Under the pieces are notes generated by a model that saw only the letters and a program-made list of their open reading frames with translations, did no database searches and was not told the DNA's origin. From assembly GCA_963674735.2 (NCBI GenBank), contig CAXXQS010000002.1, forward strand, positions 1,024,001 to 1,088,000: a stretch of DNA of 64,000 nt. The letters are read 5' to 3'. This stretch comes from Myxococcota bacterium (GTDB taxonomy: Bacteria; Myxococcota_A; SURF-8). Shown here piece after piece: positions 335 to 51,839 of this stretch; position 1 is the first letter of the stretch, and every line of letters begins with the position of its first letter. The position numbers were made by a program, and so were the translations under genes.

Positions 335-1120
335 ATGCCGGAGTTCACCACCCTGACGACCGAAAGCCGCGACCGTGTTTTTTGCATCGGCTTTAACCGA
401 CCCGATAAGTTCAACTCCTTCAATCTGGCCATGCTGAAGGAATTGGCCGAAGCATACACTCTCTTCGAAAACGATCCCGAGCAACGTTGCGCGCTGGTCT
501 TCGCCCACGGCAAACACTTCACCGCCGGTCTCGATTTATCCGAAGTCGGTCCGGCCGTGGCCCAAGGCGCGCCCCTGTTCCCCGCCGGTTCCGTGGATCC
601 CATGGACCTGATGGAACCGCGCCGCAAAAAACCGGTGGTGATCGCCATGCAGGGCTATAGTTTCACCATCGGAGTCGAATTGGCTCTGGCCTGCGATATC
701 CGACTGGCGGCCGACGACGCCGTCTTCGCCCAGATGGAAGTCTGCCGAGGCATCATGCCCTTCGGCGGTGCGACGCTGCGTTTCTGGCAGATGAGCGGCT
801 GGGGCAACGCCATGCGCTACGTCTTGACCGGTGAACGCTTTCCGGCTGCCGAAGCTTTGCGTATTGGACTGGTGCAGGAAATCGTCCCGGCTGAACAGCT
901 TTTCGAACGCGGACTGGAAGTCGCGACCACGATTGCCAAACAAGCGCCGCTGGCGGTGCAGGCGGCCCGCCGGGCCTCCATGGTGGCCATGGAAAAAGGA
1001 CGCGAAGCCGCGCTTCAGGAATTGATGCAGGAAGCGACCGGCCTGATGGCTTCAGAAGATGCGGTCGAGGGAATGATGAGTTTCATCGAGCGCCGCGAAG
1101 CGGATTTTAAAGGTCGCTAA
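335..1120 (+). CDS. Enoyl-CoA hydratase/isomerase (crotonase family)
   Basis: NRPDKFN, FTAGLDL, ELALACDIR, EGMMSFIERR motifs; GGAGG RBS. Confidence 0.9.
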   Translation: MPEFTTLTTESRDRVFCIGFNRPDKFNSFNLAMLKELAEAYTLFENDPEQRCALVFAHGKHFTAGLDLSEVGPAVAQGAPLFPAGSVDPMDLMEPRRKKPVVIAMQGYSFTIGVELALACDIRLAADDAVFAQMEVCRGIMPFGGATLRFWQMSGWGNAMRYVLTGERFPAAEALRIGLVQEIVPAEQLFERGLEVATTIAKQAPLAVQAARRASMVAMEKGREAALQELMQEATGLMASEDAVEGMMSFIERREADFKGR

Positions 1121-46865: not shown

Positions 46866-48869
46866 ATGGCCAATGAAACCTTCAAGCTGACCTCGCGCTA
46901 CCGACCGACCGGCGATCAGCCGCAGGCTATCGATGCGCTGACCGAAGGCATCGAGCGCGGCGACAAACACCAGGTGCTGTTGGGCGTGACCGGCTCGGGC
47001 AAAACCTTCACCATGGCCAACGTCATTGCCCGCCTCAACCGTCCGGCGCTTGTTCTGGCTCACAACAAAACGCTCGCGGGCCAGCTCTATGCCGAATTCA
47101 AAGAGCTGTTCCCTGAAAACGCGGTGGAGTACTTCGTCAGTTATTACGATTACTACCAGCCCGAAGCCTACCTTCCCAGCTCGGATACCCACATCGACAA
47201 AGAAGCCACCATCAACGACGAGATCGACAAAATGCGCCTGTCGGCCACCCGCTCGTTGTTGGAACGCAACGACGTGGTGATCGTCTCGTCGGTCTCCTGC
47301 ATCTACGGCTTGGGTTCCCCCGATGCCTTTGAAGGTCTGGTTGTCTTTTTAAACGAGGGGCAGGAGGTTTCCCGCGATGCGGTCATCCGCCAACTGGTGG
47401 AGATCCAGTACGAGCGCCACGACATGGATTTCCATCGCGGCACCTTTCGCGTGCGCGGCGACCGGCTGGATATCTTTCCGGCCTACGAAAACGAACGGGC
47501 CATCCGCGTCGAGTTCTGGGGAGACGAAGTGGCGGAGATCAGCGAAATCGAGCCCCTGCGCGGAACGACCCTGCGCAAACTGATCAAATGCGCCATCTAT
47601 CCGGCCAGCCACTATGTCACCACCCTGCAGCGCCGCCAGAACGCCATCCGCGCCATCCGCGACGAACTGCGCGAGACGATTCCGTTTTTCCGCAAACAGG
47701 AAAAATTAATCGAGGCCCAGCGCATCGAACAGCGCACCCAGTTCGACCTCGAAATGCTGCAGCAAATGGGCTATTGCAACGGCATCGAAAATTACTCGCG
47801 CCACCTCACCGGACGCGGGCCCGGCGATCCGCCCCCCACCCTGCTGGATTTCTTTCCCGAACCCTGGCTGCTGTTCGTGGATGAATCGCACGTGAGCATT
47901 CCGCAGGTGGGCGGCATGTATCGCGGCGACCGTTCGCGCAAGCAAAACCTGGTGGACTTCGGTTTCCGTCTGCCTTCGGCGCTCGACAATCGTCCGCTGA
48001 AATTCGAGGAGTTCGAGGCGCGCCTCAACCAGGTCGTCTATGTATCGGCCACCCCGGCCAACTACGAGTTGGAGAAAACCGAGGGCGTCTTCATCGAACA
48101 GGTCATCCGCCCCACCGGCCTGGTCGATCCGACATTGGAAATCCGCCCGGCCGGGCAGCAGGTGGACGACTTGCTGGAGGAAATCCGCCTGCGGGTGGAA
48201 CGCAAGGAGCGCGTGTTGGTCACCACGCTGACCAAGCGCATGGCCGAGGAATTGACCGACTACTACACCGACCTGAAGGTGCGCGTGAAGTATCTTCACT
48301 CCGACATCGACACCTTGGATCGCATGAAGATCATTCGCGATCTGCGGCTCGGCAAGTTTGACGTGCTGGTCGGCATCAACTTGCTGCGTGAAGGCCTCGA
48401 CATTCCCGAAGTGTCGCTGGTGGCCATTCTCGATGCCGACAAGGAAGGCTTTTTGCGTTCCGAGCGGTCGCTGATTCAGACCATCGGGCGGGCGGCGCGC
48501 CATGTAAGCGGAACGGCCATCCTATACGCCGACCGGATCACCGATTCGATGAAGCGCGCCATCGACGAAACCGACCGCCGCCGCAAAAAGCAGCTTGCGT
48601 ACAATCAGGCGCACGGCATCACGCCGCGCTCGATCGTCAAGGCGGTGTCGGAGGGCGGCATCTACGCCGAGGGCGATTACACCGTGGATCGGCGCTTGCC
48701 TAAAAATGTGGCCGCCAAAGAGATGGGGCCCGAAGAACGGCGTCAGAAGATCAAGAAACTCGAAAAAGACATGCTGCGCGCCGCCGAACGGCTGGACTTC
48801 GAAAAAGCCGCCGCCTTGCGCGATCAGCTTCTGGAACTCAAAAAACGCGACCTGCTGCCGGAGCGCTGA
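46866..48869 (+). CDS. uvrB: Excinuclease ABC subunit B
   Basis: [40 protein letters not shown]. Confidence 0.97.
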
Positions 48870-49058
48870 GGCGGCATCTCCGGCTCACACCATCCCGTTC
48901 CATTCCTTGATTTGTTGGCAGATTTCAGGTGAGTCGAAGTAATTTCTCAGCCGGCATTATTTCATATCAAACGGATGCCATCGTCTCACAAACCACGTTC
49001 GGGAGGCTGTGTAAACTCTTTGATACACACAGTCAGCCAGTAGCGACTGTTATCGGTG

Positions 49059-49994
49059 TCAAGCGAAATTCGGGTTCCAGGCTTCGTTTTTCCGCATCAT
49101 CGTGTTGAGAATGAGGACCAATTTTCGCATGCAGGCCACCACCGCCGTCATCTTCGGTTTGCCGCGTCCGACCAGCCGCTGGTAGTGTCCGCGAATCACC
49201 GGGTTGTGTTGAATCGCCACCAGCGTCGGCATGTAGAGCGCCGTGCGCAGGCGATGACGACCGCCGCCGGTCATGCGTTTACCCCGAAACGTTCCGCTGT
49301 CCCGATTCATGGGCGCCACGCCGATCAACGCCGCGATCTGCCGCCGGTTGTAGATCCCCAGCTCCGGCAGATCCGTCACCAGAAGATTCGCCGTGCACGC
49401 GCCGACGCCCGGCATCGTTTGGAGCCGCGCGGCCCGGTCGCTGCGCTCCCGATCCGATGCAATGGCCGCCGCGATGGCCCGATCCAGCCGCTCGATTTCC
49501 CGTTCGATCACCTCCAGAATGCGGTGCAGGCTTTGTCCGATCGTCCGATCGCCCACGTGTTCGGTGCGGTTTTTCTCCATCGTGCGCATGGCGACCAGCT
49601 GCCGCCTCCGTGAAGACAGGGCTTTTAACAGGAGGGCGGTTTCGCCGAGCGTTTCGTTCGGTGCGGGACGCATGGCGGCTGCGTAGCGTGCGATGATGCC
49701 CGCATCGAGTCGATCCGTTTTCGCCATCACGCCGACGGCGCGGGCATAATCCCGGATGCGCCGGGGATTGACCACCGCCACCGGCCAACCCGCTTTCTGA
49801 AGACGTTTGCACAGCTCCCGTTCGTAGCCGCCGGTGGCTTCCATCACGACGCCCTCCACCTCGATCCGCTTCAACGAACGGACGAAGCGTGTCATGCCGG
49901 CTTTGGTGTAAGCGTAGCGGACGCACGTGCTTTCGCCGTCGACGGCGACATCGAAAACGGCTTTGCTGACGTCGATCCCGATCCATTTCTTCAT
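49059..49994 (-). CDS. IS110 family DEDD transposase/recombinase
   Basis: GIDVSK, MEATG, KTDRLDA (DEDD); PGVG, G.AP..RDSG (catalytic Ser region), KMTAVVACMRKL. Confidence 0.95.
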   Translation of the reverse strand: MKKWIGIDVSKAVFDVAVDGESTCVRYAYTKAGMTRFVRSLKRIEVEGVVMEATGGYERELCKRLQKAGWPVAVVNPRRIRDYARAVGVMAKTDRLDAGIIARYAAAMRPAPNETLGETALLLKALSSRRRQLVAMRTMEKNRTEHVGDRTIGQSLHRILEVIEREIERLDRAIAAAIASDRERSDRAARLQTMPGVGACTANLLVTDLPELGIYNRRQIAALIGVAPMNRDSGTFRGKRMTGGGRHRLRTALYMPTLVAIQHNPVIRGHYQRLVGRGKPKMTAVVACMRKLVLILNTMMRKNEAWNPNFA

Positions 49995-49997
49995 GGC

Positions 49998-50200
49998 GCA
50001 CCCTTCCTTGCCAATACGGGCTCATTTCGATTACAATGGCCCCTGCGACTGTTCGGGTTTTCCCGGACGAAACGGACGGCGGATCCGGCTACAAAACGGG
50101 CTCATCAGGCCCCAGGATGGGACGATCTCGCCGCCCACCACGGCCTCCCGCTTGCTACGGGAGGTCGTTTCATCTTATCATCACAAACGATGACAGTCGC
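49998..50200 (-). ncRNA. Putative IS110 bridge RNA (5' hairpin, target-binding loop, donor-binding loop)
   Basis: Minus strand: CCTCCCG/CGGGAGG hairpin; CCCATCCT and GTAG match target GCCCATC-CT-AC; AACAGTCGC and CAAG match donor AACAGTCG-CT-TG; ends approximate. Confidence 0.8.
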
Positions 50201-50219
50201 TTGAAAGGGATAATACAAG

Positions 50220-50284
50220 GATGGGCAACTTGTTGCCCATCTTCTACACTTGAATCGCGATGGGCAACAAGTTGCCCATCCTAC
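50220..50284. repeat. Pair of inverted GTAG-type REP palindromes (left copy interrupted by the IS110)
   Basis: GATGGGCAACTTGTTGCCCATC ... GATGGGCAACAAGTTGCCCATCCTAC. Confidence 0.85.
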
Positions 50285-50300
50285 TCCAGCTACTCCAGTT

Positions 50301-50981
50301 TTATTCCTGCAATGAATTGCTAAACGTATTGTAAGGCTCGTAAACGGTCCGGCAACCGGTGAAGACGGCCTCCATGGCGTCGTCGTCTTCGGGAAAGGCG
50401 AATTCGGGGAGGCAGTGCGTGATCGGCGGGATGAAGGCGCGGATACACGCGCGCAGATCGGTATGGGTGTCGCATGCTTGGTCCGTTACCTCGTGCGCCA
50501 GGGCATCGTCGATCGTCGCGGCGGTCCAGGTCGGGAAGGCGCTGGGTGGGTTGATCATATAACCGTAAGGCAACTCGGCCCATCCGGTAACGCGGGTGTA
50601 TTCGGAGTTCGCGTTGCCGTCGAACAGACCGTATTCGGGACCCAACCACGCATACTTGAAGGCGGCGGTAGGCTGAGAAGTCGATACATCAGCGCGGTGG
50701 CTTTCGCACTGCACGGCTTTTCCACCCGCTTCGCTGGGGGCGAATCGCACCCAGGCCGCCTGACAAAAAACGCCTTCGCAACCCGAGTCGGCGCTTTCAC
50801 AGGCTGCGATCCATCCGTCAAACTCGCTTTCCGAATCCGTCGCGACACCCGAACTCGCCTGCCAACAGCGCGGCTCGCAAGCGGCATCCCACCCCGAATC
50901 GTCGCGGCTCGATCCGCAAGCGCTGATCAAGGCGATCCAAAGGCCGATGACGACCGACAACCACAGCTGTTTGATGAACAT
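50301..50981 (-). CDS. Cys-rich hypothetical lipoprotein
   Basis: Lipobox ISAC; about ten further Cys; AAGGAG RBS. Confidence 0.75.
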   Translation of the reverse strand: MFIKQLWLSVVIGLWIALISACGSSRDDSGWDAACEPRCWQASSGVATDSESEFDGWIAACESADSGCEGVFCQAAWVRFAPSEAGGKAVQCESHRADVSTSQPTAAFKYAWLGPEYGLFDGNANSEYTRVTGWAELPYGYMINPPSAFPTWTAATIDDALAHEVTDQACDTHTDLRACIRAFIPPITHCLPEFAFPEDDDAMEAVFTGCRTVYEPYNTFSNSLQE

Positions 50982-51839
50982 CAGCAGGCTCCTTTAATAT
51001 TCATCTCACTTTTTCCCAAAACAGGTCGGGTGGTTTTTTACCTGACCATGCACAATGAATTATTATCATACCATGTAACCTCAATTTATAAAACGATTGT
51101 ATACCGGTCTGGCGATTCCCGCCTGAAAACACTGCCCCTCACCTGCGCAACCTGCCGAGATTCCACACGATATTCCTGATTTTACCCTCCCTTTTCGGGC
51201 GCAGGTCGGCGTCATTCGGCCGGAATGGGAAAAGACGCCTGATATCATGAAGATAAGAGGGCATCCCTTGAATCGCATTAGTGTACTATATTCACAGTAT
51301 GACATCGGGCCTCTTTTTTCGCCGCCTCCGTCTTGCCGAAACGCCTGACTGCGGCTCTTTTCAATTCGACTCAAAACGCGCCAAGCCCCCTGTTGACGGG
51401 GTGAAATCGATTTGCGCATGCCCGACGACGCGGCAGGGAAACGCGCGCAGCGACTCTGCAAGCCGCCGTCTTCCGGCTCCACGTGTGACGTATTACGGCA
51501 ATCCCGGTTTTCCCATATGATTCGCTGCAGGACCCCCGATACGACGGCGAAAAACCCAATGATTTCGCGAAAGGCCTAAATATGGCGGCGCAAAACCGCG
51601 CAAGCGGCGCATCGGACGCATTCAACGCATCGAGCCGGATAGGCCCAGCCGAGAGGCGTTTCGGCTCTGCCGGGCGATTTGGGTCGTTTCGGCAGGTTTC
51701 GCTTGTCGCGGCAAGACGACCCATCGACGCATTCAGCGCAGGGGTGGCCTTGGCTCCCGCGAGTCGCTATTTGAGGGTTGATCGGTTTAAGCCGGTCGCG
51801 CGGACGGTCGCGCGCGGGAGTCTCGGCGAGTCGAGACGT

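Follow-up and report, generated by a model that had tools for sequence, protein, structure and literature searches.

The window analysed here is a 64,000-nt stretch of contig CAXXQS010000002.1 (assembly GCA_963674735.2, forward-strand positions 1,024,001 to 1,088,000) from a bacterium of the phylum Myxococcota. On its minus strand, at 49042..50219, it carries an IS110-family insertion sequence of 1178 bp, a length that includes a CT core dinucleotide at either end. When the right end (RE) and the left end (LE) of this element are joined through a single CT, the sequence TTGACA-17 nt-TATTAT is assembled across the joint, which agrees with the promoter consensus at 11 of 12 positions. We predict from the joined ends that this is a genuine junction promoter of a bridge-RNA element, and give that reading a probability of about 0.8. 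Features below lie on the minus strand, i.e., the gene strand, unless noted otherwise.

The two halves of the promoter are contributed by opposite ends of the element. The -35 hexamer TTGACA (49057..49062), assigned from its sequence and from the register of TTGA in relatives, lies in RE and contains the stop codon of the recombinase gene (TGA, 49061->49059, within 49062->49057). Reading on along the gene strand, it is followed by 6 nt, by the 7-nt left donor arm (LD, 49050->49044, located through the copy that the guide RNA region of relatives carries in LE), and by CT (49043->49042); the non-coding part of RE is only 17 nt long. LE begins with CT (50219->50218) and TG, after which comes the -10 hexamer TATTAT (50210..50215, identified by its sequence and its conservation in relatives), 2 nt inside the end. 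LD (49044..49050) thus falls within the promoter spacer. A -35 in one end and a -10 in the other, brought to 16–18 nt from each other by joining, is the arrangement that defines a junction promoter (Pjunc), and it was found here. An earlier note on this DNA had proposed a consensus -35 overlapping the transposase stop codon, a 17-bp spacer, and a 5/6 -10 just inside the left end; recomputation from the coordinates returned every one of these elements. The genome's own sites scoring at least 11/12 with a spacer of 16–18 nt number 128 in 10.53 million positions, and from this frequency, whose count includes real promoters, the chance that such a site straddles one given joint is ~2e-4.

The joint can only be trusted if the ends are right, and these were fixed without recourse to the promoter. 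Comparison of copies across the source genome revealed eight, identical over exactly 1178 bp and divergent outside. On the plus strand, all eight have GT before them and, after them, one and the same 22-bp palindrome, a repetitive extragenic palindrome (REP, 50220..50241) that is the insertion target; AG stands at both plus-strand ends of every copy, corresponding to CT on the gene strand. Copies and relatives together place the CT core at 49042..49043 in RE and at 50218..50219 in LE. The insertion point of 8/8 copies is the CT core in the same REP arm, as it is in four related genomes, and AC follows the RE core in 8/8 copies. Joining the flanks via one CT yields GTTGCCCATC-CT-AC for all eight, the same motif that is present at 14 unoccupied REP halves: the genome holds 31 REP palindromes, i.e., 62 half-contexts, of which 14 read GTTGCCC-ATC-CT-AC (unoccupied) and 8 read ATC-CT-TG (occupied). 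Because the comparison of copies and the joining of flanks fix the ends, the boundaries and the CT core put forward earlier are right independently of any promoter argument, the eight identical copies diverging at exactly those ends. The same core dinucleotide at both ends, no terminal inverted repeats, and site-specific insertion are traits of the IS110 family, and of its IS110 subgroup of bridge-RNA elements, and all were found.

Conservation of the hexamers was assessed at two depths. When the source genome and 40 related ones were searched at the DNA level, 8 of the 41 gave matches. Elements of ~69% DNA identity were present in four genomes, none of the same genus and two belonging to different families within the order. 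All four of these close relatives have a 17-nt spacer, with TTGACG and TATTAT on either side of it in G001, TTGACT and TATTAT in G008, TTGATT and TATTAT in G004, and TTGACT and TATGAT in G009. Searching more widely with four aligned recombinases as the query yielded 568 confirmed relatives, and the best 80 loci, which span 39–62% amino acid identity and many phyla, were analysed. RE was located by ACAGnnGCT at most 200 nt after the protein match and LE by CTTGT 150–310 nt before it; among the 80 loci, the RE motif was present in 53, the LE motif in 68, and both in 49. Subtracting 4 ambiguous loci from the 49 and adding the window and three close relatives gave 40 distinct end pairs. This anchoring by motif replaced boundary walking between copies in the same record, which failed in one of nine groups and in several overshot the ends because the flanks of those copies are repeats too.

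Across the 40 end pairs, TTGA occurs exactly 17 nt upstream of the -10 in 29, and the hexamer at that distance matches TTGACA at four or more positions in 31, at five or more in 22, and at all six in 8. Spacers of 16 or 18 nt give scores of 3 or below, with the exceptions of L101 (4/6 at 16 nt) and L099 (which fits at 18 nt). The first four columns of the -35 read T in 36, T in 35, G in 30, and A in 33 of the 40, and the five columns that follow hold 0.1–0.5 bit. LE positions 6, 7, 9, and 10 are A in 35, T in 40, T in 30, and T in 34, respectively; position 8 carries 0.37 bit and positions 11–14 carry 0.13–0.25 bit. As a hexamer, the -10 reads TAnnnT in 29/40, and its last T is kept in 34/40. 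The geometry of the clade is therefore a -35 located 13 nt before the core and a -10 located 2 nt after it, and the alignment has the look of a footprint left by two hexamers at a fixed distance, rather than of an end that is conserved in general. The 11/12 score of the element in the window is equalled by only one other end pair (L061) among the 40.

It could be argued that the hexamers are by-products of the stop codon, of the donor arms, and of protein contacts near the ends, and have no promoter function at all. TGA is indeed inside TTGACA, the first three bases of the -10 (TAT) are part of the 7-nt right donor arm (RD) under the pairing rules of IS621, and the donor arms, not the hexamers, are the most invariant columns. 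Against this, TTGA lies 12–19 nt from the core, which puts it beyond the 7-nt LD, and columns of low information surround it. In 28 of the 40 end pairs the RE motif starts at least 20 nt beyond the protein match, and because 18 of those 28 keep TTGA past the coding region, the stop codon does not explain the -35. The well-kept last T of the -10 falls outside the 7-nt RD, the 17-nt spacing is held in nearly all relatives, and promoter activity has been measured for the joints of IS621 and ISPpu10 (for the latter in PMC12288879). We regard the by-product explanation as highly improbable.

A number of observations nevertheless weigh against a junction promoter, and they are gathered here. The -35 overlaps the stop codon not only in this element but in 8 other end pairs, and conservation of TAT in the -10 may be due to recombination, since the RNA reads that donor arm. 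Nine of the 40 end pairs have no -35 (<4/6) at this register, among them L058, L063/L064, and L065 from Gammaproteobacteria and L084 and L098 from Gemmatimonadales. The usual -10 of the relatives is TATGTT or TATCTT (4/6), so the promoter of most of them is weaker than that of this element. As for the counts, 31 of the 80 loci lacking one or both motifs and the 4 ambiguous ones were dropped beforehand, the proportions may be inflated in consequence, and these 35 loci may differ from those counted; in addition, the anchors CTTGT and ACAGnnGCT fix some positions by construction. The integrated copy retains a promoter of its own, scoring 9/12. A 26-nt probe detected no RE-LE joint in the genome assembly, nor was any joint found on 48500..50800 in three sequencing runs, but these are kept as contigs only and are uninformative on circles, empty sites, and expression; among the runs on record, none of RNA contains the stretch. 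From the literature, ISPpu9 is described in PMC12288879 as managing without a junction promoter.

The promoter of the integrated copy deserves its own consideration. A promoter scan found a -35-like TGGGCA inside the REP (50234..50239), 18 nt from TATTAT, and this weak TGGGCA-18-TATTAT combination (9/12) was the only promoter-like site on the gene strand in the integrated arrangement. It is the same at 8/8 copies because the REP supplies its -35-like hexamer. Expression might then be adequate while the element is integrated, either from this site or by read-through, and the joint would add little, as reported for ISPpu9. In favour of this, besides the identity of the site at all eight copies, two reports describe IS621 as transcribed and excised without the junction promoter (PMC13626964) and ISPpu9 as lacking a hybrid promoter (PMC12288879). 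However, the integrated -35 matches at only 4/6 with an 18-nt spacer, versus 6/6 with 17 nt in the joined form; TGGGCA is not common to relatives whose flanks show them inserted in other repeats; and conservation of the -35 in RE would be left unexplained. Read-through would also be hindered by the terminator-like REP hairpin and the T-rich start of LE. We judge this alternative unlikely, and expression of bridge RNA and recombinase mainly after excision, as the earlier note has it, is plausible.

The hairpin just mentioned was noticed at 50210..50241 (minus strand), where the REP folds with a 9-bp stem directly before the T-rich LE start, and its resemblance to a terminator was noted. The hairpin of an unoccupied REP half (...ATC-CT-AC) is not followed by a T-rich LE start. 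To go by the sequence, insertion may itself give rise to a terminator and so protect the element from read-through.

How the joint arises is a separate matter. Scarless excision agrees with the sequence of the flanks, and PCR data on IS621 point the same way. The joint might instead be produced mainly by copy-out or single-strand excision, in which case the donor and the interrupted REP would stay, the promoter would need a double-stranded circle, and scarless restoration of the REP would be minor. Two preprints, on CazIS110 and IS621, support such a route, reporting excision mostly by copy-out or single-strand removal with the donor copy kept (10.1101/2025.10.25.684509, 10.64898/2026.08.31.748434). 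The presence of eight identical copies while 14 perfect target halves are still unoccupied fits copying at least as well as excision. On the other side, post-excision junctions of IS621 were detected by PCR (PMC13626964), and the window sequence favours neither mode. We hold this route to be a strong contender, with a chance somewhat short of even.

A joined form was also sought in sequence collections. The sequencing runs containing this element are three, from one study; in their contigs the element is assembled as a separate unitig (49040..50241) whose loose ends lead into other flanks, as expected for a repeat. The exact 23-nt RE string gave 0 matches in the metagenome contig collection, and a joint-spanning motif of the clade was found there in 6 stretches on 5 contigs, one of which is a clean circular path. 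This contig, MWVX01043319.1, is 1321 nt long, its first 127 nt equal its last 127 nt, and it bears the RE-CT-LE joint twice, 1194 nt apart. Upstream of the joint is the 3' part of a recombinase homologue (59% over 107 amino acids, 1e-40), and downstream are the bridge-RNA motif and a recombinase N-terminus; the promoter across its joint reads TTGACA, 17 nt, TATCTT. It is a circular assembly path of a relative through an RE-CT-LE joint, and could stem from a circle or from a tandem pair. In L132 and L134 the stretch is a contig end, and the two ends share a 52-nt overlap. L131 and L133 were rejected as joined forms, there being no LE-like sequence after the joint. In L131, RE is joined via CT to TGTAT (501..526), and neither LE-like sequence nor a recombinase N-terminus occurs in the next 500 nt; this may be an insertion into a donor-like half-site.

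We propose that the promoter would work as follows. In the chromosomal state, the -35 at RE, over the recombinase stop codon, and the -10, 2 nt inside LE, are 1.1 kb apart. The recombinase–RNA complex would join the ends at their common CT, giving a circular or otherwise joined form with TTGACA-17 nt-TATTAT, in which the donor site itself would constitute the promoter spacer and the first three bases of the -10. Transcription would start ~17–18 nt inside LE (near 50202), and one transcript would serve as both the ~200-nt bridge RNA and the recombinase mRNA. Of the two loops of the RNA, the target loop would read 7 nt of the REP arm together with CT and AC, and the donor loop would read the joined ends. 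Since this promoter would exist only once the ends are joined, and the RNA would read both target and donor, high expression would be coupled to the insertion-ready form. Circle formation, promoter activity, the start site, and the relative strength in the circular and integrated states are inferred by analogy with IS621 and ISPpu10.

The putative bridge RNA, which doubles as the 5' untranslated region, is predicted to run from ~50202 (±2) to just before the start codon (49998..50202), as judged from the position of the -10, the fold, and its stems. LE up to the start codon measures 225 nt, and its fold is better than 200/200 shuffles (z = -3.25). For a consensus, LEs of 20 of the 40 elements, hand-picked for closeness and similar LE length, were aligned; RNAalifold recovered 16 pairs from the 20 sequences, with compensatory changes in 10. 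The pairs form the inner hairpin of the first loop and both the closing stem and inner hairpin of the second loop. The outer stem of the target loop was missed by RNAalifold because some rows are shifted by one column on its 3' side; it is visible by eye and was left uncounted. A search of Rfam over 48500..51000 at E<=1 gave no family for the RNA; the 4 matches (microRNA models on the REP pair, and sX15) were all far below gathering scores and were rejected. Two REP palindromes lie 19 nt apart within 50220..50282, with complementary loops (TT and AA), and jointly make a longer imperfect hairpin, hence the spurious matches to microRNA models.

Guides were assigned by the IS621 pairing rules. 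In the first loop, the left target guide (LTG, 50114..50122), 9 nt comprising 7 nt and CT, was recognized by its match to the REP arm adjoining LE, with which it agrees at 6/7 positions, or 8/9 with CT included. The right target guide GUAG (RTG, 50089..50092) in the same loop is the complement of target CT-AC, consistent with the AC after the RE core in every copy. The second loop holds the left donor guide (LDG, 50044..50052), a same-sense copy of LD plus C that is supported by the LE copy in relatives, and the right donor guide region (50007..50015), which ends in CAAG (50007..50010), the complement of CT-TG. Among the 20 aligned elements, target arm and guide columns agree at 94/140 positions, compared with a mean of 59.7 and a maximum of 81 in 10000 permutations; the true agreement is higher because several rows are offset by one column. 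Examples of paired arm and guide are CCCATC with CCCATC and CCCGAC with CCCGAC. An 8-nt same-sense copy of LD is present in LE of 37/40 elements and varies with the arm (GTCGC, GTTGC, GCCGC). Note that these guide matches are not independent events, related elements having a shared history. Because the guides match the target and the joined ends, the CT core, and hence the positions of the hexamers, are placed independently of the promoter. A long non-coding LE that encodes an RNA with two internal loops, matching the target and the joined ends, is a further IS110 trait found.

Some details of this region stand apart. The last base of the LDG (50044) is A where the core has T, leaving one mismatch at the second core position in this element; the base is T in the four closest relatives. 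Within 50000..50010, two parts of the donor loop, its right guide and the 3' half of its closing stem, overlap the recombinase ribosome-binding site (50001..50007), so that folding of the bridge RNA or binding of protein to it could control translation of the recombinase. On the plus strand, two promoter-like sites are antisense to the bridge RNA, TTGCCA-18-TACAAT (50008..50037, 10/12) and TTGCTA-18-TATCAT (50152..50181, 9/12), and they recall the antisense small RNAs described for ISPpu9 and ISPpu10.

Near its predicted start, the RNA has an 11-nt leader (50193..50203, LE positions 17–27) that is an exact reverse complement of the 11 nt spanning the joint (LD + CT + TG). The two closest relatives, G001 and G004, have it at the same place with 10/11 identity. 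It is paired with the left donor guide in the minimum-energy fold. The 11 nt of the joint to which it is complementary are the positions at which the donor of IS621 was reprogrammed; only in the joined form would leader and joint make up an 11-bp inverted repeat, the -10 lying in the 12-nt loop between them. The duplex of leader and guide is better than those of shuffled leaders (<=0.05) in 8/37 elements, six of them members of the closest clade and two (L067, L087) more distant relatives. The leaders of L053 and L061 pair with the guide region of the RNA and not with the joined ends. Since the leader–guide duplexes include those of L053 and L061, which fit the guide region rather than the joint, the sequences favour a pairing at the RNA level that is specific to the clade; the same two leaders weaken the candidate DNA-level reading, in which the 11-nt repeat would be conserved as a subterminal inverted repeat. 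That the leader refolds a single-stranded circle into a duplex donor site, or else masks the LDG to give a self-inhibited bridge RNA in need of opening, strikes us as distinctly unlikely on the sequence evidence. Searching the literature for bridge RNAs that mask or regulate themselves turned up nothing relevant among the papers listed, which is no proof that such a case is absent from print.

The recombinase (transposase) gene (49059..49994) encodes 311 amino acids and was identified by Pfam, NCBIfam, and PDB matches. Its domains score 79.5 bits with PF01548 (cut-off 29) and 68.2 bits with PF02371 (cut-off 21.3), giving the N-terminal DEDD (RuvC-like) domain and C-terminal Tnp domain expected of an IS110 enzyme, and the protein scores 218.3 bits (cut-off 140) with NF033542, the NCBIfam model for IS110 family RNA-guided transposases. 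By sequence, its nearest solved relatives in the PDB are ISCro4 (3e-37) and IS621 (1e-34). In a 4-sequence alignment D8, E52, D94, D97, and S233 are invariant, and we take these to be the catalytic residues. With the guide and fold data, the domain matches uphold the assignment in the earlier note to an IS110-family element with a 5' bridge RNA.

Several relatives depart from the pattern in other ways. The recombinase open reading frame of G009 (L035 717..1583, minus strand) ends after 288 amino acids, and DNA similarity continues to RE, which suggests a frameshift in that copy. In L056, L057, and L060 (Planctomycetota), the RE motif lies 187 nt after the recombinase match, with an extra module of ~170 nt between gene and end, and L125 has two RE motifs 63 nt apart; both the extra module and the double motif recall the modular ends of ISPpu9.

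A junction promoter is ordinary for this family. The mechanism has already been established with IS621 and ISPpu10, so the present case changes no concept. Particular to it are the unusually good 11/12 match, an RE with only 17 nt of non-coding sequence and the -35 over the stop codon, and a host in the Myxococcota. What is gained is a fully annotated natural bridge-recombinase system from that phylum, with recombinase, guide RNA, target, donor, and promoter all assigned, and the geometry fixed across phyla in this clade should help automatic annotation of the ends of such elements.

That circles of IS110 elements form junction promoters had been taken as established, and the literature on IS621 and ISPpu10 bears this out. 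As described by Durrant et al., IS621 circles rebuild a sigma-70 promoter across the core, with the -35 in RE and the -10 in LE, that drives the bridge RNA; the RNA starts at the junction promoter, and removal of the -35 leads to loss of function. Hiraizumi et al. 2026 (PMC13626964) report strong transcription from the joint and weak read-through when IS621 is integrated, with circles and post-excision sites seen by PCR. The element of the window resembles IS621 of Escherichia coli in its DEDD and Tnp recombinase, CT core, REP target, long LE with a bridge RNA of target and donor loops, and placement of the -35 in RE and the -10 in LE. It differs in its target repeat, in a recombinase that is no more than a distant relative, in having the -35 over the stop codon with only those 17 non-coding nt in RE, and in that its promoter is a predicted one.

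According to PMC12288879 and 10.64898/2026.03.19.712850, a Pjunc with its -35 from RE and its -10 from LE is strong in ISPpu10 and absent from ISPpu9. ISPpu10, from Pseudomonas putida KT2440, is likewise described there as REP-specific, with a CT core, a strong hybrid Pjunc whose -35 comes from RE, a bridge RNA defined from +1 to the start of the coding sequence, and an antisense promoter in LE; its host is of another phylum, and the likeness drawn here is one of description. ISEc11, mentioned in PMC12288879, is also among the closest known systems. ISPpu9, also from Pseudomonas putida, shares the IS110 family, the location in REPs, and circles closed at the core dinucleotide, but its joints have no hybrid promoter and its native promoter suffices (PMC12288879). 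In contrast to ISPpu9, the promoter scan detected no comparable internal promoter on the recombinase strand of the present element. An older precedent for both circle formation and a promoter across the joint is reportedly IS492 of Pseudoalteromonas atlantica, said to go back to Perkins-Balding in 1999. Circles of the IS3 family (IS911 type) also gain a transient hybrid promoter from abutted ends, but they are the work of an unrelated DDE transposase acting on inverted-repeat ends, with no guide RNA.

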